Shown: positions 6,272-45,610 of the stretch, in pieces
How the letters are laid out: each line of letters begins with the position of its first letter
Numbering within the stretch: position 1 is the first letter of the stretch
Origin: a phage
Reading direction: 5' to 3' (one strand)
Length of the DNA stretch: 45,917 bases
Assembly: GCA_014750165.1 (NCBI GenBank)
Contig: GCA_014750165.1_4319.1
Translations under genes and position numbers: made by a program
The notes under the pieces: model-generated
Told to the model about the DNA's origin: nothing
Database searches by the model: none
Seen by the model: the letters and a program-made list of their open reading frames with translations, nothing else

Positions 6272-6622
6272 ATGGCTATTGATACTTTTAAATGGTGCAC
6301 TCAGATACAAAATGGAGGAGCCGCATTTTCCAACACGAACAATGTGCGAATCGTTAGCTTTGGTAATGGTTACGAGGCTAGAGGCACGGGAGGCTATCGC
6401 AGCAACAAGCGCAGCTACCAGATGACATACACTAACAAGGACTGGCGAGATGTGATGGATTTCTGCTTCAACCACATCATTACCCCGTTCTTCTGGACAA
6501 CTCCGCAGGGTGATACATCAATGTTTGTGATTCAACAGGATAGTATTAGCGTGACACCAGTCAGTAAGGAAGTTCAGACTGTAAACATGCAATTCGTGGA
6601 AGTATTTAGCTCAATGCGTTAA
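6272..6622 (+). CDS. minor tail protein (lambda gpM-like)
   Basis: ATG 6272 follows AAGGA. 116 aa. First gene of the M-L-K-I-J order. Confidence 0.75.
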   Translation: MAIDTFKWCTQIQNGGAAFSNTNNVRIVSFGNGYEARGTGGYRSNKRSYQMTYTNKDWRDVMDFCFNHIITPFFWTTPQGDTSMFVIQQDSISVTPVSKEVQTVNMQFVEVFSSMR

Positions 6623-6625
6623 ACT

Positions 6626-6648
6626 AGGCCCCATTAGGGGCTTTTTTA
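6626..6648 (+). terminator. terminator-like hairpin inside the tail operon
   Basis: GGCCCC-ATTA-GGGGCT followed by T6. Confidence 0.55.
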
Positions 6649-6660
6649 TTGGAGAAAATC

Positions 6661-7416
6661 ATGTTAAGTCCAAAGTTTGAAAATCAGTTGCAAAGTCTTT
6701 TCCCAGGCGAGATTGTGACTCTAATCCAGGTTGACGGAACCTCCTTTGGCTCTCTCGTTTATTCGTTCCATAATGAGAACATTTCATACACGCCAGAAGA
6801 GATCATGCTTGCCCAAATGAATGGCGAGCCACTGCCAGAGAAAACGATTACATTCCGTGGTGAAGAGTACGGCCCAAGACCTTTCGGCATCTCTGGCATC
6901 AATATGACTTCTGATGGCAAGGCAAACAAAGTTACGCTAACTGTATCAAACGTAGACCAGAGGATTAGCGCCTTGATTCGAACATACAACGGACTTGTTA
7001 AAGCTAAGGTTACCATATGGATTACTACGCGAGATAACATCAATGAAGACGGGAGTATTGCTGATGGAGATTATCGCAAATTCGTTTACTTCATTGAGCG
7101 ACCTAAGCAGGTTGATTACAAAACTGCGTCATTTGAGCTTAGTAGCCCGATGGATATGGATGGCATTTACATACCCGCACGGCTTGTTCAGTCTGTTTGT
7201 TATTGGGCGTCAAGGGGTTGGTATCGTAGCGGTAATGGATGCGACTACGCTGGTAATCGTTATTTTGACAAAGACGACAACCCGGTCAGTGACCCTTCTC
7301 TAGATTTCTGTGCGGGCACTGTTAACAGTTGCAAGATTAGATTCGGCGAGAATAATCAGCTTTCATTTGGTGGATGCGCAGCAGCAAGCCTTCAAGCCAA
7401 AGCGAATCAATCATAG
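6661..7416 (+). CDS. minor tail protein (lambda gpL-like)
   Basis: ATG 6661 follows GGAG. Has LTVSN and a C-terminal Cys cluster (CYW..C..C..C) as in gpL. Its stop TAG is part of the repeat box. Confidence 0.85.
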   Translation: MLSPKFENQLQSLFPGEIVTLIQVDGTSFGSLVYSFHNENISYTPEEIMLAQMNGEPLPEKTITFRGEEYGPRPFGISGINMTSDGKANKVTLTVSNVDQRISALIRTYNGLVKAKVTIWITTRDNINEDGSIADGDYRKFVYFIERPKQVDYKTASFELSSPMDMDGIYIPARLVQSVCYWASRGWYRSGNGCDYAGNRYFDKDDNPVSDPSLDFCAGTVNSCKIRFGENNQLSFGGCAAASLQAKANQS

Positions 7417-7482: not shown

Positions 7483-7968
7483 ATGAACTGGAATGAAATT
7501 TTCGAATACAGAGATGGCAAGATTTATTGGAAAGTTAGCCCTGGCAGGAGGGCTAAGGTTGGTTCGGAAGCTGGATCAAATCAAATAAAAGGGTATAGAT
7601 TTGTGAAATTTCACGGAGTTTTATATATGACACACAGGGTTATTTGGGAGATGCATAACTGTGAAATACCGCATGGAATGGAGGTTGACCATTTAAATCA
7701 CATTAGGGACGATAACAGGATAGAGAATTTAAGAGTTGTTACAAAGTCAATTAATCAGAGGAATGCATCTAAAAGAATTGATAATAAAAGCGGTTTTACA
7801 GGCGTTTCTTGGTATCCCAAATATTCAAAGTGGAATGCTTACGCGACAGTAAATTCCAAGAGGTTTAATCTTGGTTACTTTGAATCAAAGCAAGATGCCT
7901 ATGTGGCTGTTAAAAAATTTAGGTCCATAAATGATTTTCATAAAAACCATGGAGTTGATTTATGTTAA
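7483..7968 (+). CDS. HNH homing endonuclease with AP2-like DNA-binding domain (copy 1)
   Basis: ATG 7483 follows GGAG. Contains HRVIWE..EVDHLNHIRDDNRIENLR (HNH) followed by GVSWYPKYSKWNAY (AP2-like). Inserted between the tail genes L and K. Confidence 0.85.
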   Translation: MNWNEIFEYRDGKIYWKVSPGRRAKVGSEAGSNQIKGYRFVKFHGVLYMTHRVIWEMHNCEIPHGMEVDHLNHIRDDNRIENLRVVTKSINQRNASKRIDNKSGFTGVSWYPKYSKWNAYATVNSKRFNLGYFESKQDAYVAVKKFRSINDFHKNHGVDLC

Positions 7969-13997: not shown

Positions 13998-14064
13998 GCG
14001 TTTCGTTTCGATGGAGTAATAGTATCGCATCCTTGCGATCAGTGTTTAGCAATTAGTGCTATTC
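13998..14064 (-). promoter_or_regulatory. box/-10/leader cassette
   Basis: Minus strand reads AATAGCACTAATTGCTAAAC, 22 nt (ATCGCA..TGCGAT hairpin), TACTAT, then CCATCGAAACGAAACGC. Confidence 0.6.
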
Positions 14065-14744: not shown

Positions 14745-14810
14745 CTCGTTAGTTTAAGTGCGGCGATTATACCGCACAGAATTTATTGTTCTTTAGCAAT
14801 TCGTGCTATT
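14745..14810 (-). promoter_or_regulatory. box/-10/leader cassette
   Basis: Minus strand reads AATAGCACGAATTGCTAAAG, 22 nt (GTGCGG..CCGCAC hairpin), then TATAAT (14771..14766). Confidence 0.6.
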
Positions 14811-15453
14811 TCTTTTCCAGCAGCAGCTTGATGTCAATGCCGAGATTATTCTCAATCAATCCGGTCAGCGCATCATTCTTTTCTTTAAGGGCGAAGCATT
14901 GGGCTTCATATTTAAATCTCTCCTCCATCTCATCCGATCGACTAACCCAACATTGTCTAGCCTCACAAGCCAGCATATCGAGCTTTTCATCGGTATTCTT
15001 ATCCATGAGTAAAATCTCATTTATTCTTTGCTCTGCAACAATTCGCTGGCTCAGGTGTGCATTTTGCGCATTAGCCACACCAAGCATCATTCGAGCCTCT
15101 TTTAACTCATCAATGCTTACCATCTGGCTGATTACTTCTGCTTGCTTTTTAACTAATGCCTCCAGCTCATGAAGTCGACGGATTACTTTGTGTCGAAGCA
15201 CGACACTGTAGCCAGTGATTAGCGTTTCAGTGAGTTCCTTGTTGAGTAAAATCTCAGATGTATAGCCTCGATTGTCTGTAAGTAGTTGATAATCATCATG
15301 CCCCAAATCTGGGGCATCGTTATAATGTAACAATTCATTGATCATTTCCTTTGTGTCGCGAACGACGTGATCATGACGTTTGCCGGTTAACTCTGCGATT
15401 TCCTTTGTGCTCATCATGGTTTTTGGTTGTTCTTTGTACGCTTTAATGTTCAT
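14806..15453 (-). CDS. Rha-family phage regulatory protein
   Basis: STKEIAELTGKRHDHVVRDTKEMI matches the Rha N-terminal domain pattern. ATG 15453 preferred over the track start 15534. The stop TAG lies inside the box. Confidence 0.75.
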   Translation of the reverse strand: MNIKAYKEQPKTMMSTKEIAELTGKRHDHVVRDTKEMINELLHYNDAPDLGHDDYQLLTDNRGYTSEILLNKELTETLITGYSVVLRHKVIRRLHELEALVKKQAEVISQMVSIDELKEARMMLGVANAQNAHLSQRIVAEQRINEILLMDKNTDEKLDMLACEARQCWVSRSDEMEERFKYEAQCFALKEKNDALTGLIENNLGIDIKLLLEKK

Positions 15454-15519
15454 TTTAATCTCTCTATATGTTTTGACTTCGAAAATTTCGTATTCAAGCA
15501 GCACCATTGCCGCCATGAG

Positions 15520-15568
15520 CCTAAATATACCCAAAGATACCCAGTTGTCTTTAGCAAATCGTGCTATT
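15520..15568 (-). promoter_or_regulatory. box/-10 cassette
   Basis: Minus strand reads AATAGCACGATTTGCTAAAG, 22 nt, then TATATT (15529..15524). Confidence 0.55.
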
Positions 15569-15665
15569 TATAGCCAATTTCACCATAAATCACGGTTACA
15601 CGTAACCGATGTAACTCGATGTATACAATCTCATCCGCGGAAAATGATATACGCGCTGTTACGCC

Positions 15666-15938
15666 AATTTACGCAACAGTTACATTAAAATATCTATATA
15701 TATCAACCTTTTACTCTTATTATTATTATTATATATATTACTGTGTATATCATGTAACTACTTCTATAGAGTGTTCCGGTTATAATTTTAATATCATGTG
15801 ATTTTATACAGTATTGCACGGCAGCTATACCAATGCACCATCAGCAATAAATGATATACACGATATACACGCCGGTTACATTGAGCTATAGCTGGGCTTA
15901 GATGCCAAAAAACGTAACTAATGGCAATACCTACACGG
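15666..15938 (+). repeat. control-region repeat, copy A
   Basis: Collinear with 35031..35299. A 93-nt AT-rich core (15666-15758, including (TAT)n) aligns at roughly 85 percent identity. A second block (15877-15938) includes the start of ORF 15902. Confidence 0.8.
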
Positions 15939-16252
15939 AATTACAAGGATTCACGCGTAAACTTAAATCAACGATTGGCAAAACCAATTGGACTGGCTAC
16001 GGTGACGAATATATAGTTAACCCATCGAAAGCAAGCAACCAGAGAGATATAGAAATGGTAAAGAAGATAGATTTGTACTCAGCTCACACCGTAATACTGC
16101 CTAGCTATGCTCCGGTTTTTATTGGTGTAACTTACGAAATAGCTCTTAAATTATGCGAGTCATCATATGGTAAAGACTGGAAAAATAAATCAATTAGAAT
16201 AGAAAAGACAACTAAAGAGCATATCGAAATCATCGTGGGGTTGCAAAAATGA
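15902..16252 (+). CDS. hypothetical protein (first rightward gene)
   Basis: 116-aa ORF at the strand switch. Confidence 0.6.
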   Translation: MPKNVTNGNTYTELQGFTRKLKSTIGKTNWTGYGDEYIVNPSKASNQRDIEMVKKIDLYSAHTVILPSYAPVFIGVTYEIALKLCESSYGKDWKNKSIRIEKTTKEHIEIIVGLQK

Positions 16253-16443
16253 CATACTACATTATCAAAGAGAAAAACAACGCACTGTTCGGCGACTGCT
16301 ACTTTGGTGGTCCGGCTGGGTACACAACAGATAAGAGCGAGGCTGACAGATTCGAGACGAAAGAAGAAGCCCGTGATGTACTGACCGGTTACTTCACTGA
16401 AGAAGATTTGAAGTCTGTTAAAGTGGTTAAGATCAAGGGGTGA
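16249..16443 (+). CDS. hypothetical protein
   Basis: ATGA start/stop overlap with the upstream gene; 64 aa. Confidence 0.6.
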   Translation: MTYYIIKEKNNALFGDCYFGGPAGYTTDKSEADRFETKEEARDVLTGYFTEEDLKSVKVVKIKG

Positions 16444-16446
16444 GTT

Positions 16447-17412
16447 ATGAGATTTAAGGTTTTTACTCGAGAGGAACTAAGCAACGAGGCTTACCACTCA
16501 GAGACTGAACACATCTCCGGCAGCTCACTTGTTGAGATTATCCAGGGCTCACCAGCTAAGTGGAAATTCAAACAACGTAACAATGATAGCAAGGCTCTTA
16601 AGTTTGGCACACTAAGCCACACGATGATTCTCGAGCAAGATGTATTCGACAAGGAGTATCTTCGAGCTACAGATCTTGATGCGATTGAAGGATTAATTAC
16701 AAGTCAGACCGGATTGGCCTCAGCACTTAAAAAAGTTGGTGTAGCTGGCACGTCCGGTAAGGGGTATAGCGAGCTAGTAGAGATGATGCATCGCTCTGGT
16801 GAGGATTGGCCTGTTAAGTGGCTAATTGAGCAGCAGGAGAGCGCTCAGGCGCTCGTGGAGGGTAAAGAGCTAGTTAGTGCAGCGGACTATGACAAAGTGG
16901 TAGCGATGCGTGAGGTTCTTTGCAACATTCCAGCATATGATGCAATCGTGAACAGCGAGACGGCGCAGAAAGAGCTATCAATCTTCGGTGAGATTCTAGG
17001 TGTTGGCGTTAAGATTCGAATCGACCATGTTGATGTTGTTGATGGAGTCGTTCGGATCACAGATTATAAAACTACCGCAGACGCTAGCCCGGAAGGATTT
17101 GGTAAGTCGGCTTTTAATCACGGATACCTTGCAAAAATGGCGCTTCAGCGCGACCTGTTTGTGAAGGCATTCAACGAGAAGAGAAAGGTTATTGTAGGAT
17201 TGCTGGCGCAGGAGAAGGTAGAGCCATATTTACCAATGCTGTACACCTTGACGGACGAACAGCTACGAATTGGTCGTCTCCAGTATCTTGAGGCGCTCGC
17301 CACTTACAAGAAGTGCAAGGAGCTAGATATCTGGCCTGGATATTCGAACGGCATTACAGAGCAAGAATTGATGATTCCTGAGTGGGCGTTAAAACAATAT
17401 AAAGAAATCTAA
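16447..17412 (+). CDS. PD-(D/E)XK exonuclease (RecE/YqaJ-like)
   Basis: IRIDHVD...RITDYKT matches a D..D/E-x-K nuclease core. Adjacent to an annealase and SSB. Confidence 0.7.
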   Translation: MRFKVFTREELSNEAYHSETEHISGSSLVEIIQGSPAKWKFKQRNNDSKALKFGTLSHTMILEQDVFDKEYLRATDLDAIEGLITSQTGLASALKKVGVAGTSGKGYSELVEMMHRSGEDWPVKWLIEQQESAQALVEGKELVSAADYDKVVAMREVLCNIPAYDAIVNSETAQKELSIFGEILGVGVKIRIDHVDVVDGVVRITDYKTTADASPEGFGKSAFNHGYLAKMALQRDLFVKAFNEKRKVIVGLLAQEKVEPYLPMLYTLTDEQLRIGRLQYLEALATYKKCKELDIWPGYSNGITEQELMIPEWALKQYKEI

Positions 17413-17479
17413 ATAGCACGAATTGCCAAAACAAAGCGGGATGACTTAGGTATAGTTATCCCATCAACAACGAACGAGG
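17413..17479 (+). promoter_or_regulatory. box/-10/leader cassette
   Basis: ATAGCACGAATTGCCAAA, 22 nt (GGGAT..ATCCC hairpin), TATAGT (17451-17456), then CCATCAACAACGAACGAGG. Confidence 0.6.
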
Positions 17480-21292: not shown

Positions 21293-21301
21293 TCTTTCAG
21301 G

Positions 21302-21327
21302 TATAAAAAAACCTCCCGAAGGAGGTT
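21302..21327 (-). terminator. intrinsic terminator after the primase gene
   Basis: Minus strand reads AACCTCC-TTCG-GGAGGTT followed by T8. Confidence 0.8.
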
Positions 21328-22307: not shown

Positions 22308-22781
22308 TTACCCTTTAGCTTTTCGTGCTGCCTCGTTAGCGGCCTTAATCTTGCGCCATGATCGACACTCTGGCTTGGTGGCTAACTCAGCCTCAGTAAC
22401 CACGCGTAGCATGTGACGCTTTTTGCACCGGAGTGTCAGTGGCTTGCCGTTACCGTCAAATTGCAGGTCTGGTCGGCAGAATGTAGCACGAAAACCCTCT
22501 CCGTTTCGTTTGTAGTAGTTGTGCGACAGTTGAGCACCGCGCGCAGAAATCATACCACGCTTAAACCATTCTTCTACAGCCTGCGGAGTTACCTTTAACT
22601 TCTTTGCAATATTCGCCTTTGTGACGAAGAAATCAAGGAGCATCTCAAGCCGCGCGCGTAGCCCGGCTCTTACTTCATCTTTTAAAACGTAGTAGCCTGA
22701 AGGTCGTTTACGTTGTTTTTTGTCTTCAGTGCGGATAGTTCCGTTATTACCGTTAGTGGTTCGCTTGTCAACTGCATTCAT
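22308..22781 (-). CDS. helix-turn-helix DNA-binding protein
   Basis: ANIAKKLKVTPQAVEEWFKRG is HTH-like. Basic N- and C-termini. 157 aa. Confidence 0.6.
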   Translation of the reverse strand: MNAVDKRTTNGNNGTIRTEDKKQRKRPSGYYVLKDEVRAGLRARLEMLLDFFVTKANIAKKLKVTPQAVEEWFKRGMISARGAQLSHNYYKRNGEGFRATFCRPDLQFDGNGKPLTLRCKKRHMLRVVTEAELATKPECRSWRKIKAANEAARKAKG

Positions 22782-22793
22782 TTCATCACCTCA

Positions 22794-22840
22794 ATAGCAT
22801 TTTTTGTTAAAAGTCATTCAGATTTGATGGTAGTATTGTA
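22794..22840 (+). promoter_or_regulatory. box cassette (T-spacer variant) upstream of the helicase
   Basis: ATAGCATTTTTTGTTAAAA, a 21-nt spacer, then TAGTAT (22831-22836). Confidence 0.45.
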
Positions 22841-22863
22841 CTCAATTAAACGCTACAAGACAA
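22835..22863 (-). promoter_or_regulatory. sigma70-like promoter for the HTH gene
   Basis: Minus strand reads TTGTCT (22863..22858), 17 nt, TACAAT (22840..22835). It overlaps the + strand TAGTAT hexamer. Confidence 0.5.
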
Positions 22864-22882
22864 TTTTTATAGGAATTTAGAT

Positions 22883-24877
22883 ATGTTGCCTATCGAGAAG
22901 CTGGTTGCAAACTTCGATAAAGAAAGAATCAAGCAGATTCAGAAAGATTATCAGTTTGGCGAGATAACCCCTTACGAGTTCCAGTGCGTAACATTCGATG
23001 CAATCGGAAAGGCTATTGGAAAGTACGAGGCCCCATTTATCGCTGACCTTTCCGTGTCTGCGGGTAAGACAATTATTCTCGCTATGATTGGAAAGCGTAT
23101 GGAGCAGCTTGGTCTTCCTTATATGGTCCTCTCTCGCCAGTCAGAGATAATCAGCCAGAACTCAGAAGAGCTTCGCAACTTCGGCATCCGTAACAGCGTC
23201 TATTGCGCTGGCCTTAACGTTAAATCAGTTTACTACCCAACCATAGTCGCTAGTGAAGGTACCGCGGCTAACGGCTTGTTTAAGGGGCTTGGTGACTATG
23301 TTCCGGCAGTTATCGCAATCGATGAGTGTCACATGCTTGATGCTATGGATATCGTTGAAGCCGAGGAGAACGAAGAAACATTTGAGCAAATGAGCACAAA
23401 GAAAGGTGAGATGGTATTTAAGGATGGTGTTAATACCGGGTTGCTTGGCACTGGCCGCGCGCAGTACACGCTAATCATTACCGAGATGAAACGTCGTTGT
23501 CGTGAGAAGTACGGTCGCGAGCTTAGGATTTTTGGCCTTACTGGTAGCCCATATCGTAACAACGATCACATTGTCGTTAGTAACCAAAATGTCCGTGGAT
23601 TCTGGCGCAAAACGGTAATACAAGTACCAACAAATTACCTTGTTGATTTGGGATTCGTTGTTCCAACCGTTTACGGAGAGGTTGGTGATTTGGGTTACGA
23701 CCTTGCAGAGTTTGCGCCAGACGGAAGCGATGGCGTTAAAGACTTTAGCAAGAAAGAAATGGAAGCAATGGCTGCAAAGATTCACGACAACCAATCCATG
23801 ACTCAAAGGATAATGGGTTTTGTTGTAAAAATACTTGAGACTCGAAACGCCGCATTGGTCACCTGTGCTGGCAAACTCCATTGTGATGAGGCTGCTGCGG
23901 CACTCCCAGACGGATACCCCTACGCCATCATCACAGACTCCACTGGAGAGAGGAAGCGCAGAGAGATTCTAGCTGATTGCCAGACTGGAAAGTACAAAAT
24001 AATATTCCAGATTGGCTGTCTAACTACGGGCGTAAACCAGCCATTGTGGGATACCAGCGTTATACTGCGCAAGATTGGCAGTTTGACTTTGATGATTCAG
24101 CTTCTTGGTCGTGGCATGCGAAAACTAAAAAAGGCGCACATAGATGCGGGGTTCAAGAAGGAGGATCACTTGGTATTAGACTTTGCCGGAGCGCTGGATG
24201 ATATGGCCGAGCTTTACTTTGACCCAATAATTGAAGAAATTCAGGCTGAGAAGTTCAAGTCCTCAAGGAAAGGTGGTGATGAGGCCCGTCAGTGCCCGCA
24301 ATGTGGATATGAGAACTCACCATTTGCTCGACGCTGTGGCAATAAGATTGATGGTGTTAGATGCGATCACTTCTTTCAGTTCACAACTTGCGAAGACATT
24401 ACGGACCCACAAACTAAATCGGTAATTAAAAAGGGATGTGGCGCTCGTAACGACATAGCGGCAAAGGTTTGCCGAGAGTGCGGTGAGATGCTTAAAGACC
24501 CGAATGCTAATCTGACCGGTAAGATGTATCGTCGAGGAGATTACTTGCGCGTTTATGATTTCCAGATTGGATTGAGTAAAAATCAAACAGGAATAGTAGT
24601 TAAATACAACATCATGGCACATAACGGAGAGAGGTTTAACGCGTGGGAATTCTTTAACCCTGAGTCTGACCATCGAGTTTGCAGTGTTCTATGGAAAAAC
24701 TTCTGCCTAGCTCATATTGAGAATCGAACAGAAGCAGCACGAATTGGAAGATTAAAGAATGCTAGAATGATCATGACCAACGTAGATAAGTTCCGTGCGC
24801 CAGTGCAAGTAACACACAGAAAAAACGGCAAAGGAAAGGACGTGATCGCGTTTAAGAATTTTGGAGAATTGAAGTGA
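22883..24877 (+). CDS. SF2 DNA helicase (DEAD/DEAH-like) with C-terminal zinc ribbons
   Basis: Walker A SAGKT, motif II DECH, and CPQCG..C..C plus CRECG in the C-terminus. Confidence 0.8.
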   Translation: MLPIEKLVANFDKERIKQIQKDYQFGEITPYEFQCVTFDAIGKAIGKYEAPFIADLSVSAGKTIILAMIGKRMEQLGLPYMVLSRQSEIISQNSEELRNFGIRNSVYCAGLNVKSVYYPTIVASEGTAANGLFKGLGDYVPAVIAIDECHMLDAMDIVEAEENEETFEQMSTKKGEMVFKDGVNTGLLGTGRAQYTLIITEMKRRCREKYGRELRIFGLTGSPYRNNDHIVVSNQNVRGFWRKTVIQVPTNYLVDLGFVVPTVYGEVGDLGYDLAEFAPDGSDGVKDFSKKEMEAMAAKIHDNQSMTQRIMGFVVKILETRNAALVTCAGKLHCDEAAAALPDGYPYAIITDSTGERKRREILADCQTGKYKIIFQIGCLTTGVNQPLWDTSVILRKIGSLTLMIQLLGRGMRKLKKAHIDAGFKKEDHLVLDFAGALDDMAELYFDPIIEEIQAEKFKSSRKGGDEARQCPQCGYENSPFARRCGNKIDGVRCDHFFQFTTCEDITDPQTKSVIKKGCGARNDIAAKVCRECGEMLKDPNANLTGKMYRRGDYLRVYDFQIGLSKNQTGIVVKYNIMAHNGERFNAWEFFNPESDHRVCSVLWKNFCLAHIENRTEAARIGRLKNARMIMTNVDKFRAPVQVTHRKNGKGKDVIAFKNFGELK

Positions 24878-25293
24878 ACATAACAGATAAAGAATATTAC
24901 ATTGAGTTTTACCCAGGTTCAGTTAAGTCATGCCCGAAAGAGGATGACGAACAAATCTTTTGCTCTGATTGGGTTAAGTATAACTATCCAGAGATGGTAT
25001 TTTTCCACTGTGTGAATGAGGGTAAGAAAACCATTGGTCAAGCAAGAAAAGACCAGGCAAAGGGTTTGCTCAAGGGCGTATCAGACTGCATGTTTTTGAT
25101 ACCTGAATCCGTGCGAGGAAGGTATCCATTTGGCGCAATAGAGCTAAAGAGAGCTGGAAAAACACAGGCTAGCCCAGTCAGTAACGAGCAGAAGTCATTC
25201 CTGAAAAGTGTAAGGGAATCAGGAGGTTTCTCCGCTGTGGCTTACGGTCGCGAGGGTTTTCTGGCAGCATTCAAAGAAATGATTTCTAAATAG
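24874..25293 (+). CDS. VRR-NUC domain nuclease
   Basis: GTGA overlap with the helicase. GVSDCMF..IELKR matches the D..E-x-K core. The stop TAG lies inside the box. Confidence 0.7.
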   Translation: MNITDKEYYIEFYPGSVKSCPKEDDEQIFCSDWVKYNYPEMVFFHCVNEGKKTIGQARKDQAKGLLKGVSDCMFLIPESVRGRYPFGAIELKRAGKTQASPVSNEQKSFLKSVRESGGFSAVAYGREGFLAAFKEMISK

Positions 25294-25354
25294 CACGAAT
25301 TGCTAAACTCGATTTTAAAAGATGTTGTATAGTTACTTCATAGAAACGAAACAC
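25289..25354 (+). promoter_or_regulatory. box/-10/leader cassette
   Basis: AATAGCACGAATTGCTAAA, 22 nt, TATAGT (25328-25333), then TCATAGAAACGAAAC. Confidence 0.6.
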
Positions 25355-28002: not shown

Positions 28003-28485
28003 ATGATTTTTTTATACTATAAGGATGGAAAGGTTTTCTGGAGAGATCCGCACTGCACGAGATTGAAGCCAGGTGATGAGGCTGGTAGTAGGCACCATAG
28101 GGGTTATTGGTATATTCGTAGATATGACAAAACAATGTCAAGGCACCGAATCGTATGGGAGATGCACAACGGAACAATACCAGACGGTATGGAGATAGAT
28201 CATATAAATCACGTGCCTGGTGATGACAGAATTGAAAACCTAAGAATGGTCACAAGAAGGCAAAACAATCAAAACAAAAAATTAAATGAAAGAAATACAA
28301 GCGGACACGTCGGGGTTAGCTGGAACAAGAAGACAAACAAATGGAGAGCAATGATAGGCATAAGGGGAGAGGACGGAAAGAGGAAAACTTTATACGTTTA
28401 TTATGGTGATTCTTTCGATGATGCGGTATCAGCAAGAAAGAAAGCAGAGGCTGAGCACTCGTTTCATGAAAATCACGGTAAATAG
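28003..28485 (+). CDS. HNH homing endonuclease with AP2-like domain (copy 2)
   Basis: HRIVWE..EIDHINHVPGDDRIENLR followed by GVSWNKKTNKWRA. The RBS-backed ATG at 27993 is out of frame by one across a T7 run (28007-28013). Confidence 0.8.
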   Translation: MIFLYYKDGKVFWRDPHCTRLKPGDEAGSRHHRGYWYIRRYDKTMSRHRIVWEMHNGTIPDGMEIDHINHVPGDDRIENLRMVTRRQNNQNKKLNERNTSGHVGVSWNKKTNKWRAMIGIRGEDGKRKTLYVYYGDSFDDAVSARKKAEAEHSFHENHGK

Positions 28486-33589: not shown

Positions 33590-33655
33590 CATCTCCCGTT
33601 TCGATGGAAAGATAATACCGCATCCTTGCGATTTCGTTTTAGCAATTCGTGCTGT
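33590..33655 (-). promoter_or_regulatory. box/-10/leader cassette
   Basis: Minus strand reads ACAGCACGAATTGCTAAAA, 22 nt (TCGCA..TGCG hairpin), TATTAT (33617..33612), then CCATCGAAACGGGAG. Confidence 0.6.
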
Positions 33656-33803
33656 TGCGCGCCCTTTCTATCGCCTTGAGCATAATTTCGTGACTTTCCA
33701 GTAAATCCTCTCGGAACCAATCCCCGCAAGGCCAACCATTTCCGCTGTAAGCTGCGATGGTGCAAAGATCGTAATAGTTAATATCTGATGGTAGTAGCAT
33801 CAT
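33639..33803 (-). CDS. hypothetical 54-aa protein ending in NSTNC
   Basis: ATGA overlap with the upstream gene at 33803. Reads through the box, so the C-terminus is ..RARNSTNC. Below the ORF-track cutoff. Confidence 0.5.
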   Translation of the reverse strand: MMLLPSDINYYDLCTIAAYSGNGWPCGDWFREDLLESHEIMLKAIERARNSTNC

Positions 33804-34043: not shown

Positions 34044-34535
34044 CTACCTCATTCCGCTGTTCTTGTGGTATTTCGCATTAACCTCAGCAACAATCCTCGC
34101 CTCGCAAGCACAGATAAAGTCTATGAATGTTCCTAAACATACAATTTTCCCATCTATGCTAATTCTTGCCGACCACTTACCTCTAACATCCATGTTCACA
34201 CCAGTTACCCCTGGCTTTCTTCTTACATACCTTTTGAGATTCTTATGATTTTCCATGTGGCTAACTAGCCTTAAGTTTTCAATCCTATTATCAGACCTAT
34301 CTCCATTAATGTGGTCGATCTGCATTCCTTTTGGTATATCTCCGTTGTGAATAATCCAGACCGCTCGATGGCAATAAATTAGCTTATTCTTAACCCTAAA
34401 TGCCTTGTATCCATGGCTATGCATGCAGCCAGCCTCGTCACCAACTTTTACTTGGGATGAGTTATACTTTCTGTAAAGTTTCCCATCCTTATACTCTACG
34501 GCGTTTACAATATCCTCAACTAGAATGGCACACAT
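34044..34535 (-). CDS. HNH homing endonuclease with AP2-like domain (copy 3)
   Basis: HRAVWI..QIDHINGDRSDNRIENLR followed by GVNMDVRGKWSAR. Confidence 0.8.
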   Translation of the reverse strand: MCAILVEDIVNAVEYKDGKLYRKYNSSQVKVGDEAGCMHSHGYKAFRVKNKLIYCHRAVWIIHNGDIPKGMQIDHINGDRSDNRIENLRLVSHMENHKNLKRYVRRKPGVTGVNMDVRGKWSARISIDGKIVCLGTFIDFICACEARIVAEVNAKYHKNSGMR

Positions 34536-34696
34536 GATTCACACCCCCAATCCCCACAACAGAAATCTTCATCCTCTGACTGGAATTGCTTAGCCAAATC
34601 AATATCCAACTTTCCGCGGACAACAATTTCGGTGTAATCTTCGTTAAGTCCGATCAGCGCGCATTCGTGGCGTAACTCGTCTTTATCAATCTTCAT
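34520..34696 (-). CDS. hypothetical 58-aa protein with Cys-rich C-terminus
   Basis: ATG 34696 follows the cassette leader plus GAGGAG. Ends ..FCCGDWGCESCVPF. Its last 16 nt overlap the HNH start. Confidence 0.45.
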   Translation of the reverse strand: MKIDKDELRHECALIGLNEDYTEIVVRGKLDIDLAKQFQSEDEDFCCGDWGCESCVPF

Positions 34697-34699
34697 ATC

Positions 34700-34768
34700 T
34701 ATCTCCTCGTTTTGATGAGTTAACTATATCCTCCATGACCCCCAATGTCTTTGGCAAAAAGTGCTATT
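34700..34768 (-). promoter_or_regulatory. box/-10/leader cassette (T-spacer variant)
   Basis: Minus strand reads AATAGCACTTTTTGCCAAAG, 23 nt, TATAGT (34728..34723), then CTCATCAAAACGAGGAG. Confidence 0.55.
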
Positions 34769-34779
34769 CGTTAGATTTA

Positions 34780-34867
34780 TTGATTGTTGCATATATTGCA
34801 ATGATTATCATGACTATTGCACATATGGCAATATTGCTTCAGATGCAATGATGTTTTTGATTGTTGC
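34780..34867 (+). repeat. iteron-like nested direct repeats
   Basis: TTGATTGTTGC occurs at 34780 and 34857. TGCAATGAT occurs at 34797 and 34844. Several (A/C)TATTGC units lie in a non-coding AT-rich stretch. Confidence 0.5.
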
Positions 34868-35030
34868 GAAAAGTGAAATGAAGTGGTGAGTGAGTGAATG
34901 AAAGATGGATGGACTACCATACAAGTTGATTTTTATTCTTGCTGAGCCATTTTCACGCATACGCGTTATAAAAGTTATGCCTTGTGGATGATGCCACCCT
35001 CCGCAGTAATCGTGCACGCCTATAACGCTG

Positions 35031-35299
35031 AATTACGCAATGGTTACACTATAATATCTATATATAACAACCATTTAGTATAATTATTATTATTATATAT
35101 ATTACTATGTATATCATGTAACCACGCATCCGGCGGGGGTCGATAGTTTTTCTATGAAAATGACATTTTCTATATATATAAGGATAGGCATATACCCTCC
35201 CCGATTTCCGCGGAAATCCATACACAGGCAAATTACATACGCTATAGCTGGGCTGAGGTAGCAAAAAGCGTAACCGGGGCCAATATAAACACGAAATAA
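35031..35299 (+). repeat. control-region repeat, copy B
   Basis: Collinear with 15666..15938. The core is 35031-35122 and the second block is 35233-35299. Confidence 0.8.
35258..35299 (+). pseudogene. remnant of the 5' end of the ORF-15902 homologue
   Basis: GTA GCA AAA AGC GTA ACC GGG GCC AAT ATA AAC ACG AAA TAA aligns codon for codon with ATG CCA AAA AAC GTA ACT AAT GGC AAT ACC TAC ACG GAA at 15902. Confidence 0.5.
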
Positions 35300-35302
35300 C
35301 AC

Positions 35303-35330
35303 TTGATAACGTGTATATGTGTGTTATTAT
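35303..35330 (+). promoter_or_regulatory. sigma70-like promoter for the rightward small-gene operon
   Basis: TTGATA (35303-35308), 16 nt, TATTAT (35325-35330), then a CATCTTAACGAAGGG leader. Confidence 0.5.
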
Positions 35331-36701: not shown

Positions 36702-36835
36702 TTTACATCCATACTTACTACACTGGGAAGTTTAATAGCGTTAAGCATTCCAGTGTTCACGATAGCTACGAGAGCGCAAAGGCCCAATGGTTGGTTCTTG
36801 GTGGTGATATCAATTCATATAGAGTCGCTGAATAG
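36698..36835 (+). CDS. hypothetical 45-aa protein
   Basis: ATGA overlap at its start, and its stop TAG lies inside the box. Below the ORF-track cutoff. Confidence 0.45.
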   Translation: MIYIHTYYTGKFNSVKHSSVHDSYESAKAQWLVLGGDINSYRVAE

Positions 36836-36897
36836 CACGAATTGCTAAAACAGTATTGGGGTAATTTGGTATAGTTACCCCATCGAAACGAACGAGG
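36831..36897 (+). promoter_or_regulatory. box/-10/leader cassette
   Basis: AATAGCACGAATTGCTAAAA, 22 nt, TATAGT (36870-36875) in the loop of GGGGTAA..TTACCCC, then CATCGAAACGAACGAGG. Confidence 0.6.
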
Positions 36898-38658: not shown

Positions 38659-38736
38659 GCTCTGCTAGCTCAATTGGATAGCAGCAACGACCTTCTAAGT
38701 CGTAGGTTACTGGTTCGAGGCCAGTGCAGAGCGCCA
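38659..38736 (+). tRNA. tRNA-Arg (anticodon UCU), CCA encoded
   Basis: Acceptor GCTCTGC/GCAGAGC, anticodon stem ACGAC/GTCGT with loop CTTCTAA, T arm ACTGG-TTCGAGG-CCAGT, discriminator G followed by CCA. Confidence 0.9.
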
Positions 38737-39571: not shown

Positions 39572-41143
39572 ATGAGTGATTTAATCGTGTGGGATGAACT
39601 TACATACGCAGAAAAGATGGCTATCAAGGCCATCTCTGAGCATAGTTTCGAGGGGTTCTTGCGGTGTTTCTTCCAGATAACGCAGGGTGAGAGATTTAAA
39701 ATGAATTGGCACGCGAAGTACCTTTGCCGCGTCATAGATGAGATTCTTGATGGTAAGAGAAAGGACACCATCATAAACATAGCTCCGGGATCTGCCAAAA
39801 CCGAACTGTTTAGCATCCACTTCCCTGTATATAGCATGATTAAGATTAAGAAGGTTAGAAATCTTAGTTTGTCTTTCTCTGATTCATTGGTGAAGCGCAA
39901 CTCAAAGCGTGTTCGTGACCTGATAAAGTCAAAGGAGTTCCAGGAGCTTTGGCCCTGCAAGTTTGGAACATGCAGGGATGACGAAATTCAAGTGCTGGAT
40001 GAGAATGGTAAAGTTAGGTTTGAGTCTATATCTAAGGCGATGGCGGGGCAGGTGACGGGAAGCAGGGGAGGCTACATGACTGACGATTATAGTGGTTGCA
40101 TAATGCTGGATGACCCACTAAAACCTGATGACGCGCTAAGTAATGTAAGAAGAGAGGCTGTCAACATGCTTCTCAAGAACACAATTCGTTCACGTCGAGC
40201 TAGCTCAGTAAAGGGAAAGGAAACGCCAATACTTGCCGTGCAGCAAAGACTTCATGTCCTGGACACTAGCCACTTCATGGAGTCAGGGCAGATGGGCATC
40301 AAGTTCGACGTAGTGAAAGTTCCAGCCATAGTCACGGAGGATTACGCCGACACGCTCCCTGATTGGATTAAGCAGCAATTTATTGATGATGTTCTTTCGT
40401 CACCATTTGTTGAGAGGGATGGGGTTAAGTATTACAGCTACTTCCCAGCAAAGGAATCAATAGAAGACTTGATGGCAATGCGGGATGCTGACCCTTATAC
40501 ATTCCTAAGTCAGTACGCTCAAGAACCAGTAGCACTTGGCGGCAATCTGATTAACGTGGATTGGTTCCAGCGCCTTAGCGATACATTCAGACCTCCCGCT
40601 AAGTATGATTATCGATTCATCACATGCGATACTGCGATGACCACAAAGAGTTATAGTGACTTCTCTGTACTTCAGTTGTGGGGATATAAGGATGCTAAGA
40701 TTTACCTGATAGACCAGCGCAGAGGTAAATTTGAAGCACCAGAGTTGGAGGCTGAACTACTGGACTTCGAGAAGAAATCAAGGGCAACCAGTCAGTCAGA
40801 TGGCATCCTCCGAAAGATCATCATCGAGAAGAAAGCGTCTGGTATCGGCCTGATTCAATCAGCTGGCAGGGTTATGCGAACACCGATAGAGTCATACGTA
40901 CCGGATAATGACAAGCTAACCAGGGTGATGAGTGCACTACCACAGATTAAGGCTGGTAACGTAGTTCTTCCAGAGTCATCGCCGTGGCTAAACGGATTGC
41001 TCACTGAGGTTGCGGCTTTTACGGCAGATGACTCGCATAAGCACGACGACCAAATTGACTGTCTAACAATGGCGGTAAACCTTGTACTTAACATCGCGGA
41101 TGATCCTAAGGCGAGACTAATGCGCATAGCAGGAATTAAATAG
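39572..41143 (+). CDS. terminase large subunit
   Basis: 523 aa. ATPase motifs (NIAPGSAKTE, IMLDDP) and a C-terminal nuclease region (..HDDQIDC). The stop TAG lies inside the box. Confidence 0.9.
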   Translation: MSDLIVWDELTYAEKMAIKAISEHSFEGFLRCFFQITQGERFKMNWHAKYLCRVIDEILDGKRKDTIINIAPGSAKTELFSIHFPVYSMIKIKKVRNLSLSFSDSLVKRNSKRVRDLIKSKEFQELWPCKFGTCRDDEIQVLDENGKVRFESISKAMAGQVTGSRGGYMTDDYSGCIMLDDPLKPDDALSNVRREAVNMLLKNTIRSRRASSVKGKETPILAVQQRLHVLDTSHFMESGQMGIKFDVVKVPAIVTEDYADTLPDWIKQQFIDDVLSSPFVERDGVKYYSYFPAKESIEDLMAMRDADPYTFLSQYAQEPVALGGNLINVDWFQRLSDTFRPPAKYDYRFITCDTAMTTKSYSDFSVLQLWGYKDAKIYLIDQRRGKFEAPELEAELLDFEKKSRATSQSDGILRKIIIEKKASGIGLIQSAGRVMRTPIESYVPDNDKLTRVMSALPQIKAGNVVLPESSPWLNGLLTEVAAFTADDSHKHDDQIDCLTMAVNLVLNIADDPKARLMRIAGIK

Positions 41144-41206
41144 CACGAATTGCTAAACTAAGTCGCCACGGATGGCGTATAGTTACTTCATCGAAACGAG
41201 AGGAGA
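41140..41206 (+). promoter_or_regulatory. box/-10/leader cassette
   Basis: ATAGCACGAATTGCTAAA, 22 nt (CGCCA-CGGA-TGGCG hairpin), TATAGT (41178-41183), then TCATCGAAACGAGAGGAG. Confidence 0.6.
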
Positions 41207-41603: not shown

Positions 41604-41624
41604 TTAAAAGCCGTGTGATAAACT

Positions 41625-41647
41625 AGCCCCTACATGGGGCTTTTTTA
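41625..41647 (+). terminator. intrinsic terminator
   Basis: AGCCCC-TACAT-GGGGCT followed by T6. Confidence 0.75.
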
Positions 41648-41659
41648 TTGGAGAAAAAC

Positions 41660-42913
41660 ATGGTTAAGACAGACAGCTACGCCAATATCTTTCTAGGCGG
41701 CAGTGATGGTAGTGAGATTTACGGGAGTTTACAGAATCAAGACCCTACAATTCTTGGTTCGCTTTATGCAAATAATGCGCTGGTGCGTCGAATCATTGAC
41801 ACAATCCCGGAAACAGCACTAGCGGCAGGGTTCCACATTGATGGTATTGATGATGAGTCAGCATTTTGGTCGCGCTGGGATGATTTAGAAATGACGCAGA
41901 ACATTAACGACGCTTGGTCATGGGCGCGATTATTTGGCGGCGCTGCAATTGTCGCTATCGTTAAGGACAATAGAGCATTAACGAGTCCGGTCAGAGAAGG
42001 TGCCGAGCTTGAAACTGTTCGCGTTTACGACCGTACGCAGGTAAAGGTACAAACTCGCGAGGAGAACCCACGCAACGCGCGATTTGGTAAGCCGCTAACC
42101 TATCGTATCACCACAAACGAAAGCGATATGTTCTACGATGTGCACTACAGCCGCATTCACATCATTGACGGAGAGCGAATTCCTAACGTAATGCGTCGGC
42201 AGAATGATGGCTGGGGCCGCAGCGTTCTATCCAGTGACATTCTTGACTCAATTAAGGATTACACCAACTGCGAACGACTGGCTACGCAGTTACTGAAGCG
42301 CAAGCAGCAAGCAGTGTGGAAGGCGAAAGGTCTGGCTGAGTTATGTGATGATAGCGAAGGATTTGGTGCCGCTAGATTACGACTTGCACAGGTTGACAAC
42401 AATAGCGGCGTTGGTCAGGCTATTGGCATTGATGCAGAGTCTGAAGAATACAGCGTTCTGAACTCTGATATTGGTGGGATTGACGCGTTCCTGGATAAGA
42501 AGTTTGACAGAATCGTTGCCCTGAGCGGAATTCATGAAATCATCCTGAAGAACAAGAACGTTGGTGGCGTGTCATCAAGCCAGAATACGGCGCTAGAGAC
42601 ATTCCATAAGCTAGTTGACCGCAAGCGTAACTCTGAGTTGCTTCCTATTCTTGAGTTCTTAATCCAGTTCATCGTTAACGTTGACGAATGGTCAGTTGAG
42701 TTTAATCCTTTAGCCCAGGAGTCCAGCAAGGATAAAGCAGAGATTCTTGAGAAGAACGTAAGCAGCATTGCGGCACTAATTGGGGCTGGCGCTATGGATA
42801 CTAACGAAGCACGTGATACACTACGCACTATCGCACCAGAGATTAAGATCTCAGATGTCGATATTGACGCCCAACAACAAGAGCCATTAGAGGAGGTCGT
42901 AATTAATGAGTAA
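41660..42913 (+). CDS. portal protein
   Basis: ATG 41660 follows GGAG. About 417 aa, placed after TerL and before the scaffold/capsid genes. Confidence 0.75.
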   Translation: MVKTDSYANIFLGGSDGSEIYGSLQNQDPTILGSLYANNALVRRIIDTIPETALAAGFHIDGIDDESAFWSRWDDLEMTQNINDAWSWARLFGGAAIVAIVKDNRALTSPVREGAELETVRVYDRTQVKVQTREENPRNARFGKPLTYRITTNESDMFYDVHYSRIHIIDGERIPNVMRRQNDGWGRSVLSSDILDSIKDYTNCERLATQLLKRKQQAVWKAKGLAELCDDSEGFGAARLRLAQVDNNSGVGQAIGIDAESEEYSVLNSDIGGIDAFLDKKFDRIVALSGIHEIILKNKNVGGVSSSQNTALETFHKLVDRKRNSELLPILEFLIQFIVNVDEWSVEFNPLAQESSKDKAEILEKNVSSIAALIGAGAMDTNEARDTLRTIAPEIKISDVDIDAQQQEPLEEVVINE

Positions 42914-44545: not shown

Positions 44546-44568
44546 GCCTCCTTCGGGAGGTTTTTTTA
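44546..44568 (+). terminator. intrinsic terminator
   Basis: CCTCC-TTCG-GGAGG followed by T7. Confidence 0.75.
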
Positions 44569-44573
44569 TACCA

Positions 44574-44639: not shown

Positions 44640-45581
44640 ATGGCCATTAAATTTGATGCAGAACAAGCAAAAATCACCGCTCATCTCGAGCAAATGGGCG
44701 TAGATAAGGCTGATGCCGCTGGTATCTGGACTGTTAGCCAGCTGACCGCCGCTCTTAATCGCGCTTATGAAAAAGAATATGCAGAAAACTCAGTTGTTAA
44801 TATCTTCCCTGTAACCAATGAAATCCCTGGTCATGCGAAGTATTTCGAATATCCAGAGTTTGATGGTGTTGGTATTGCTCAGATTATCGCTGATTACTCT
44901 GATGACCTGCCGCTGGTTGATGCTTTCATGACTGAGAAACAAGGTAAAGTGTTCCGTTTCGGTAACGCGTTCCTTATTTCTACCGATGAAATCAAAGCAG
45001 GCGCTGCAACTGGTCAGTCACTGTCAACTCGCAAGCAAGCCCTGGCTTTCGAAGCGCACGATAACCTGCTTGATAAACTGGTTTGGTCTGGCTCCACCCC
45101 GCACGGTATCCCTAGCGTATTCGACCACCCGAACATCAACAACGTTGTTGCTGGTACGTGGAACTCCGCAGCTGCCGCCATGACTGATATCACCGCACTT
45201 ATTGATGCGATCGAGACTTCGACCAATGGCACTCACACCGCAACCGATATCTTGCTGCCTGCTTCCGCTCGCCGCCTGATGCAAGAGCTGGTTCCTAACA
45301 CCTCTATCAGTTACGCGCAGTTGTTTGCTACCAACAACTCGGGCATCAATCTTCGTTATCTTCAGTTCCTGGATAACTACGACGGCGCAGGCGGCAAAGC
45401 AGCATTGGCATTTGAAAAAAATCCGCTTAACCTTTCGATTGAGATCCCGGAAGCCACTAACGTGCTGCCTGGGCAAGTGAAGGATTTACATATCAAGTAC
45501 CCTGTAACCTCTAAGACCACAGGATTGATTTTATATCGCCCTCTGACAGTGGCAGTAATGAAAGGTATCACCTTCGCGTGA
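44640..45581 (+). CDS. major capsid protein
   Basis: 313 aa with its own promoter and a strong terminator. Position in the head module. Confidence 0.8.
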   Translation: MAIKFDAEQAKITAHLEQMGVDKADAAGIWTVSQLTAALNRAYEKEYAENSVVNIFPVTNEIPGHAKYFEYPEFDGVGIAQIIADYSDDLPLVDAFMTEKQGKVFRFGNAFLISTDEIKAGAATGQSLSTRKQALAFEAHDNLLDKLVWSGSTPHGIPSVFDHPNINNVVAGTWNSAAAAMTDITALIDAIETSTNGTHTATDILLPASARRLMQELVPNTSISYAQLFATNNSGINLRYLQFLDNYDGAGGKAALAFEKNPLNLSIEIPEATNVLPGQVKDLHIKYPVTSKTTGLILYRPLTVAVMKGITFA

Positions 45582-45587
45582 TAAATC

Positions 45588-45610
45588 GCCCTCTTCGGAG
45601 GGCTTTTTTA
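45588..45610 (+). terminator. intrinsic terminator
   Basis: GCCCTC-TTCG-GAGGGC followed by T6. Confidence 0.8.

Follow-up and report, generated by a model that had tools for sequence, protein, structure and literature searches.

Paired AT-rich control modules of a T1-like phage as candidate replication origins

Background

This article concerns an AT-rich non-coding segment that occurs twice in the genome of a T1-like phage, represented here by a stretch of 45,917 nucleotides (nt) that was analysed as a whole and is referred to as the window (contig GCA_014750165.1_4319.1 of NCBI GenBank assembly GCA_014750165.1). T1-like phages are common coliphages and Klebsiella phages, which belong to the stock of therapy collections and are a feared presence in fermentation plants, and their replication origin has been reported as not found (PMC11447400; PMC7718038). 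We describe the two copies of the segment, which we call units A and B, compare them with the corresponding sites of related phages, and weigh their possible functions in replication and in transcription.

BLAST comparison with phage records places the window among the T1-like siphoviruses of the family Drexlerviridae, subfamily Braunvirinae, with Rtp, CEB_EC3a, Veterinaerplatzvirus isolates and the BASEL Piccard phages as relatives at ~85-95% identity; MN840485.1 is a distinct genome with ~94% identity to the window at unit A, in reverse orientation. The gene order is typical of T1-like relatives. A long rightward block, which holds small early genes and those for terminase, head and tail, wraps round the ends of the window and is followed by a leftward block of cor and membrane genes, to which a Rha-family gene and a methyltransferase gene have been added, a rightward exoVIII-Erf-SSB block, a leftward block of tail-fibre, primase and regulator genes, a rightward block from helicase through lysis, and a further leftward block that contains the DUF3987 helicase-like gene. 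The primase, whose zinc ribbon is of the P4-alpha type, has a gene separate from that of the DUF3987 helicase, and the phage has an ExoVIII/Erf recombination system of its own. Three divergent junctions result, at ~15.5-16.0 kb (site A), 22.8 kb (22781/22883) and ~34.7-35.4 kb (site B). The initial annotation of the window held that both divergent junctions carry the repeat, which overlooks the one at 22781/22883 that lies outside the pair.

The repeated units

In a self-BLAST of the window with the low-complexity filter off, the AT-rich cores of the two units (15651-15761 and 35016-35125) form the top self-match, at 84.7% identity over 111 nt (E 1.3e-27), and a second block (15863-15945 and 35220-35301), collinear with the core, matches at 72% over 83 nt (E 2.8e-4). 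A repeat search returned the same pair as D5 (15656-15761 and 35020-35125, 106 nt, 85%, offset 19364) and D11 (15885-15945 and 35241-35301, 61 nt, 75%, offset 19356). The middle portion between core and second block has diverged and is 123 nt long in A, against 115 nt in B. Significance was assessed by comparing local alignment scores with those of 300 dinucleotide-preserving shuffles. The whole units score 107.5 against 17.3 +/- 3.0 in shuffles (z 30) and the part right of the core alone scores 36.5 against 12.8 +/- 1.9 (z 12.5); for the part left of the core, the similarity of A and B in the window is not significant (z 1.1). Because of these z values, and because the non-repetitive flanks of the cores also agree between the copies (TTACGCAA..GTTACA on the left, TGTATATCATGTAAC on the right with 26 of 27 positions), the similarity is not an artefact of AT bias. 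The duplication as initially annotated, with a core at roughly 85% identity, a diverged middle of 110-120 nt and a conserved second block, is thus borne out by the repeat search, the self-BLAST and the shuffle test alike. As judged from their sequences, the two units are paralogous non-coding early-control modules of the same layout, in which a 70-110 bp (TA)n/(TAT)n core with a site of the integration host factor (IHF) type inside it is bracketed by direct and inverted copies of RTTACR and ATGATATAC(AC) and is followed ~180-230 bp further on by a predicted activator-independent sigma-70 promoter, from which the rightward early operon would start. The features of site A are:

15524..15571, minus strand: leftward box promoter of A, serving the Rha-family gene (ATG 15453); inverted repeats I7 and I13
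15594..16054, plus strand: unit A, the entire conserved non-coding module from the leftward box promoter to ATG 16055; near-invariant in six phages
15651..15761, no strand: core A, AT-rich, with stretches of (TA)n and (TAT)n; partner of core B in the top self-BLAST match
15658..15685, plus strand: three phased TTACR motifs (GTTACG, TTTACG, GTTACA) at the left edge of core A, spaced by 10 and 11 nt (one helical turn); collinear in position with copy B
15701..15713, plus strand: TATCAACCTTTTA, inside core A; agrees fully with the IHF consensus WATCAANNNNTTR, to which the window has just four such matches, this one included
15743..15758, minus strand: right-edge motif GTGTATATCATGTAAC, an inverted copy of ATGATATAC(AC) and of GTTACA (inverted repeats I1, I2, I6, I9); 26/27 against copy B
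15853..15870, plus strand: tandem GATATACAC GATATACAC with a 9-nt period; additional copy at 15644-15652
15863..15945, no strand: block 2 of A, with the palindrome AGCTATAGCT (15884-15893) between GTTACA and GTAAC; non-coding
15989..16017, plus strand: P_A-right, a predicted box-less sigma-70-type promoter TGGACT-17-TATAGT, followed by the leader CATCGAAAGCAA, a Shine-Dalgarno sequence (GAGAGATA-type) and ATG 16055

The features of site B are:

34723..34768, minus strand: leftward box promoter of B; inverted repeat I8
34804..34831, minus strand: P_B-left, predicted promoter TTGCCA-16-GATAAT, in a region invariant in five phages
35016..35125, no strand: core B, with a one-mismatch IHF-like site TAACAACCATTTA (35065-35077), phased TAAC/TTAC/TTAC (35023-35047) and the right-edge motif (35107-35122)
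35220..35301, no strand: block 2 of B, containing GCTATAGC (35241-35248); conserved in Rtp, G8 and JulesPiccard
35303..35330, plus strand: P_B-right, predicted promoter TTGATA-16-TATTAT with an upstream TG and 10/12 consensus matches, followed by the leader GGATTCATCTTAACGAAGG and ATG 35373 of the DUF7174 gene

Duplex stability and conservation

Duplex stability was calculated from nearest-neighbour stacking energies over 100-nt segments and expressed as z within each genome. In all five genomes analysed, the two cores rank as the least stable 100-nt segments (z 4.6-5.9, with the next segment at 3.2-4.5), and they occupy the same two gene positions in each genome:

Window: site A z 4.9 (15675-15774), site B z 4.7 (35021-35120); next segment 3.3
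2725-N35: site A z 4.8, site B z 5.2
T1 (Tunavirinae): site A z 5.3, site B z 5.9
TLS (Tempevirinae): site A z 5.0, site B z 4.6
Klebsiella phage KP36 (Webervirus): site A z 5.4, site B z 5.8

The element is present in two copies in 2725-N35, T1, TLS and KP36 as well, which answers the comparison with relatives suggested initially. The exo-erf-ssb module of KP36 is inverted, so that its site A is not a strand switch, and the element is still found upstream of exoVIII; the element therefore belongs to the head of the exoVIII operon and not to strand switching. Among nine IMG/VR contigs that have an exact 24-mer from the core, four contain it twice. Copy B is under-counted by BLAST, which gave 6 full-length and 15 partial records.

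Concerted evolution was examined with local alignment scores of 161-nt core segments, for which the shuffle null is 12 +/- 2. Cores A and B of the same genome score 77 in the window, 56 in 2725-N35, 38 in T1, 40 in TLS and 88 in KP36, where the copies share an identical 52-mer; cores of the same site compared between subfamilies score 19-33. Cores A and B thus evolve in concert, being alike within a genome and diverging between the four lineages. Such likeness is expected if one genome-specific factor recognises both cores, or if gene conversion is frequent. Copies of B in Braunvirinae are A-like in different patches in each lineage, which suggests some gene conversion.

Aligned from six phages, site A has only two variable columns out of 100 at 15690-15790, and unit A is near-invariant over ~200 nt despite differing neighbour genes. 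The flanking genes are mosaic: to the left, the Rha and methylase genes are absent in Rtp, JulesPiccard and 2725-N35, and to the right the window has an extra 65-codon gene (16055-16252, MVKKIDLYS...) without a family match. The relatives begin a conserved MTYYIIKEKNN gene at the ATG equivalent to 16055, a gene that the window has at 16249-16443, so that the conserved region stops at ATG 16055 and is followed by a different gene in the window and in the relatives. The Rha-family ('anti-repressor') gene on the left (14806-15534, minus strand) most likely starts at ATG 15453 and not at TTG 15534.

This boundary bears on the 116-codon open reading frame (ORF) at 15902, whose 5' part lies in unit A. 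Within 15902-16054, the variable sites in the six phages are spread over codon positions 1, 2 and 3 as 12, 15 and 17, and in-frame stops occur in G8 (75 nt upstream of the ATG) and in 2725-N35 (108 nt upstream). Given this even variation and these stops, the ORF is over-extended, and its true start is probably ATG 16055. The initial annotation considered that the 5' end of a gene had been duplicated and survives in B as a 13-codon remnant; block 2 is non-coding in both copies, and a copied gene start was ruled out by the missing third-position bias and by the stops in G8 and 2725-N35. The correction extends to deposited records, as the same, probably over-extended ORF appears as Rtp rtp46, EC3a gp44 and JulesPiccard bas03_0033, where it runs through the conserved promoter and leader.

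Repeats and host-factor sites around the cores

Unit A contains eight copies of GTTACR where 0.5 are expected (P 1e-7). Five GTTACR positions are collinear in A and B, namely two direct copies left of the core, an inverted one at its right edge and an inverted pair around AGCTATAGCT, and the spacing across the core from the direct copy to the right-edge copy is 74 nt in both units. The motif ATGATATAC(AC) is found at 15644, inverted at 15745-15756, and as the tandem pair of 9-mers at 15853-15870; tandem repeats stand at the equivalent place in T1 (three copies of CGATTAACA, at site B) and in TLS (GTGAACAC GTGAACAG). Of the 12 copies of GATATAC in the genome, 4-5 fall in unit A. The IHF match TATCAACCTTTTA is unchanged in all but one of the six site-A copies. 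DnaA boxes are absent from both units, and there is one in the whole window.

The short repeats differ between lineages and stay clustered at both sites. Braunvirinae have GTTACR, T1 has the related TGTAAC (seven at site A against 0.26 expected), TLS has TGTTC/GAACA (14 copies, P 7e-6), and KP36 has GTAAGAT/ATCTTAC round its cores. The KP36 region 34514-35008, upstream of exoVIII, carries at least 12 copies of GTAAGAT/ATCTTAC in both orientations, a denser array than in the coliphages.

Promoters and box cassettes

The best sigma-70 promoter matches in the AT cores reach 9 of 12 consensus positions and are no commoner than in shuffles. Genome-wide, 13 sites score at least 10/12; none lies in either core, and P_B-right is among them. 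The best -10 hexamer of the core (TATAAT, minus strand) has a -35 candidate only at a spacing of 19 nt. Plausible early promoters are found at 15989-16017, outside the segment originally described, and at 35303-35330, just past its end in copy B; consequently, the earlier suggestion that the AT core is itself the immediate-early promoter did not hold. P_A-right has 9/12 consensus matches, and in the six phages both hexamers are invariant and the spacer is variable. P_B-right is homologous to the promoter P01 of TLS, and at the same place T1 has TTGACT-16-TATAAT and TLS has its predicted P01 and P51; the distance from core to promoter is ~180-230 bp in the window, T1 and TLS. A third predicted box-less promoter, the leftward TTGTCT-17-TACAAT (22863-22835), precedes the gene of a regulator similar to Rtp52 and T1 gp23. 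It lies in a 100-nt intergenic region and has no AT core upstream, so that early promoters do not appear to need a core in general. The window has few box-less sigma-70-type promoters, namely P_B-right, P_B-left, P_A-right and the regulator promoter, and the authors of the TLS genome predicted only three sigma-70 promoters, at the same three places, two of which are sites A and B.

Most other genes are preceded by a different element. The 21-nt repeats aaATAGCACnnnTTGnTAAAA, or 'box cassettes', were described earlier in TLS, T1 and Rtp, where their function was unknown (PMC11447400). In the window a cassette consists of AATAGCAC-GAA-TTGCTAAA, ~20 nt that often form a small hairpin, and then TATAGTTA..CATCGAAACGA, and it occurs at no fewer than 17 sites, for example at 2338-2401, 17409-17465, 25287-25350, 36829-36892 and 41137-41200 on the plus strand and at 14004-14063 and 33597-33656 on the minus strand. 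The conserved TATAGT implies a transcription start ~41.5 nt downstream of the centre of the box dyad TAGCA-N5-TGCTA, and no -35 hexamer stands at a normal spacing. A dyad at such a position is the geometry of class II activator-dependent promoters. Boxes precede most genes, including the helicase gene (22794-22813) and the leftward operons at sites A and B. The leftward cassettes that had been noted on the left flank of each copy are indeed there, at 15524-15571 for A and at 34723-34768 for B, the latter ~250 nt from the core with other elements between. The duplicated units themselves contain no box, and their own promoters are box-less.

At the regulator/helicase junction (22781-22883, 100 nt), the regulator promoter (22863-22835, minus strand) overlaps the helicase box (22794-22813, plus strand), so that the box lies in the leader of the regulator, a layout that suggests autoregulation. 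The simplest scheme we infer is that the box-less promoters would be used first, the regulator would then be made, and the box promoters would follow; a division into a few early box-less sigma-70 promoters and later activator-box promoters is directly testable. The Rtp genome paper (J Bacteriol 2006) reportedly links inverted repeats to Rtp52. We found no transcriptome data for any T1-like phage in the literature.

A structured non-coding RNA was also considered and ruled out. RNAalifold applied to 11 A and B sequences on both strands gave no fold common to A and B right of the core (0 to -1.8 kcal/mol, z no better than -2.3 against column shuffles), and no Rfam family matches the units; a gathering-threshold Rfam search of the entire window returned nothing but a tRNA at 38659-38733. 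The left flank gave a consensus of -4.9 kcal/mol (z -3.0).

Site B and its neighbours

Site B reads, from left to right, leftward box promoter, a group of repeats with P_B-left, core B, a lineage-variable middle, block 2 and P_B-right. As P_B-left reads leftward, core B is placed between predicted diverging promoters. The repeats, GATTGTTGC...GCAATGATT at 34777-34881, are near-invariant in five phages. The T1 record starts inside GTGATT|GTTGCATGG...GATTGTTGCTTAGAATGCAATGATTG, which is the left end of the annotated 2.8-kb terminal repeat, and this genome-end sequence matches the repeats of the window, which makes 34777-34881 the probable packaging (pac) region of the phage. The pac-like repeats sit 130-240 nt left of core B, and there are none at site A. 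The leftward operon adjoining site B contains an HNH homing-endonuclease gene (34044-34535) that is missing there in several relatives.

To the right of copy B, the nearest gene codes for a protein of the DUF7174 family, which is also present at this position in Rtp and TLS; the equivalent T1 gene gives a weak match below the Pfam cut-off and that of KP36 has no Pfam match. The AlphaFold model of the protein (mean predicted local distance difference test score, pLDDT, 79.5) has an N-terminal helix-strand-helix...beta-hairpin arrangement. Sequence searches against solved structures and NCBIfam gave no match, and Foldseek found nothing significant, with many weak matches to RepE54, a plasmid initiator (E 0.4-1.5, template modelling score ~0.22) that come from one protein deposited many times. 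The model is at most a hint of a winged-helix-like N-terminal domain. DUF7174 as a recognisable initiator was consequently set aside; the RepE54 resemblance is not significant and is not counted as evidence.

Discussion

We tentatively propose that the paired early-control modules contain, in their AT cores, the candidate unwinding elements of two replication origins. The proposal is based on the combination of an extremely meltable core that contains a putative bend site, short repeats in phased and inverted arrangement, diverging promoters, near-invariance over ~200 nt and the paired co-evolution of the two sites. We count in its favour that the near-invariance seems to exceed what a promoter needs, and that the early promoter of the regulator does without a core. 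After injection, host RNA polymerase would fire the box-less promoters. A core that lies between promoters pointing away from it would accumulate negative supercoiling. This supercoiling, left in the wake of the diverging polymerases, would act jointly with proteins that bind and bend the DNA at the repeats to open the AT core, onto which the DUF3987-type helicase and the P4-alpha-like primase would then load. The two units would thus be two origins coupled to immediate-early transcription, like oriL and oriR of Bacillus phage SPP1.

Several observations weigh against this proposal. AT-rich, protein-bound upstream regions are also found where control is purely transcriptional, and the near-constant core-promoter distance of 180-230 bp suits such a role too. 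The enriched repeats are only 6-12 nt long, and GTTACR is enriched in unit B far less than in copy A (P 0.013 for 3 copies, with 0.5 expected). Over the whole genome the IHF consensus shows no enrichment; copy B departs from it at one position, and T1 lacks it. A more specific version of the proposal, in which the two modules would form an obligatory two-site replication system, both needed in cis like ori and crr of P4, and served by an undescribed initiator (the DUF7174 protein or another early-operon product) with which the repeats co-evolve, seems to us rather unlikely; if it were true, the long-missing origin and the initiator of the T1 family would be defined. A search for satellites or plasmids that have borrowed an origin gave no match to unit A in 5,426 E. 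coli genomes and 72,556 plasmids.

The most serious alternative, nearly as likely as the origin reading, is that the units are a purely transcriptional platform, with cores and repeats occupied by a nucleoid protein (IHF or another) and/or by a phage regulator. The platform would boost the early promoters or later silence them, for example through supercoiling-induced destabilisation or looping, and would have no part in replication. The position of both units upstream of box-less sigma-70 promoters speaks for it, as do the coincidence of these sites with two of the only three sigma-70 promoters predicted in TLS, the similar core-promoter distance in the three phages, the IHF consensus in core A, and the palindromes beside the promoters (AGCTATAGCT in both copies, and the lineage-specific CCTACAnnTGTAGG and CTGACAccTGTCAG in some B copies). 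It is less easily reconciled with the regulator promoter, an early promoter whose 100-nt intergenic region holds no such element; moreover, 180-330 bp is a long distance for an UP-type or class I/II effect, and near-invariance over ~200 nt, together with the rank of least stable DNA in five genomes, exceeds what promoter regulation usually calls for. The initial annotation placed the promoter in the core itself, as a bidirectional immediate-early promoter/operator hub copied along with the 5' end of a gene. Part of this stands, since the duplication is real and constitutes a non-coding control region that heads early operons and is conserved in relatives, and a location between oppositely transcribed early genes and the many -10-like hexamers of the core are in keeping with a hub; the promoter in the core and the gene start do not stand. 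The core matches are at shuffle frequency, the best -10 can be paired only at 19 nt, better promoters lie outside, and the stretch taken for a coding remnant lacks codon-position bias and carries stops in relatives, so we regard the hub in its original form as improbable.

We think it equally improbable that the pair is a functionless duplication, in effect a conserved linker at module boundaries that is homogenised by frequent recombination between phages and between copies. The mosaic genes on either side of unit A (Rha, methylase and the extra gene at 16055-16252), the phage-encoded ExoVIII/Erf recombination and the patchy, lineage-dependent A-likeness of B copies would all agree with a linker, but four lineages with diverged core sequences have all kept two copies of extreme composition, and the flanking repeats vary by lineage while remaining clustered at both sites. 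Least probable of all, in our estimation, is that the units form part of the pac recognition region. Two papers put pac in this untranslated region, and the start of the T1 record lies ~200 nt left of the T1 site-B core; however, the repeats found at the T1 end occur only at site B, site A has a core without them, and one would not expect a further pac site at a distance of 19 kb. The direct repeats were also thought to permit deletion of the segment between them. Such a deletion is mechanistically possible, and it would remove primase, helicase and lysis genes and therefore yield only defective genomes.

The units are of a kind already known, AT-rich regions of control or origin type with repeats; we could find no earlier description of them in Drexlerviridae. 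The closest comparison is SPP1, a pac-type siphovirus of ~44 kb in which oriL and oriR lie ~13 kb apart, each combining direct repeats with an AT-rich unwinding element, and in which AT-rich islands mark origins and control regions (PMC6316719). The likeness to the window lies in the two related copies with an AT-rich element and, in the window, candidate binding repeats. In SPP1, the initiator gp38 has been shown to bind, and replication has been shown in vitro, whereas the window units are known from sequence; oriL is inside gene 38, whereas both window copies are intergenic and tied to early promoters. In satellite phage P4, ori and crr are distant cis elements with a common iteron, TGTTCACC, that is bound by the alpha primase-helicase. 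The window primase has a zinc ribbon of the P4-alpha type, the T1 record calls its primase alpha-like, and the TGTTC(A/C) enriched in TLS resembles the P4 iteron; in contrast to P4, the primase and the DUF3987 helicase of T1-like phages are separate proteins and the type of repeat varies by lineage. Iteron origins such as those of pSC101 and F have an AT-rich unwinding region with an IHF site, then repeats, and then a palindrome that immediately precedes the next gene's promoter. The order of elements in the window units is similar, but the units lack DnaA boxes and their repeats are far shorter than 19-22-bp iterons. In the primary origin of T7 and in oriF and oriG of T4, an unwinding element lies downstream of a promoter whose transcript serves as primer; the window likewise has promoters next to an AT-rich element, but they point away from the core. 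The aaATAGCACnnnTTGnTAAAA boxes share the genomes of the units and stand on the left flank of both, but they are a separate element, with a dyad, that precedes most genes.

With two precise and conserved candidate sites per genome, the question of the T1-like origin becomes testable. The two least stable segments and the lineage-specific repeats mark these sites in all five genomes tested and can serve as a simple predictor.

Other features of the genome

The window contains three HNH homing-endonuclease genes, two of which share 100 nt (7645-7744 and 28156-28255) at 71% identity. The 26-nt sequence GGTATAAAAAAACCTCCCGAAGGAGG is present at 21300-21325 and, as its perfect reverse complement, at 44547-44572, 23 kb away; the pair looks like the same terminator hairpin serving both orientations. 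A module of a terminator hairpin and TTTTTTATTGGAGAAAA(A/T)CATG stands between consecutive late genes at 6613-6663, 41612-41662 and 45575-45610.

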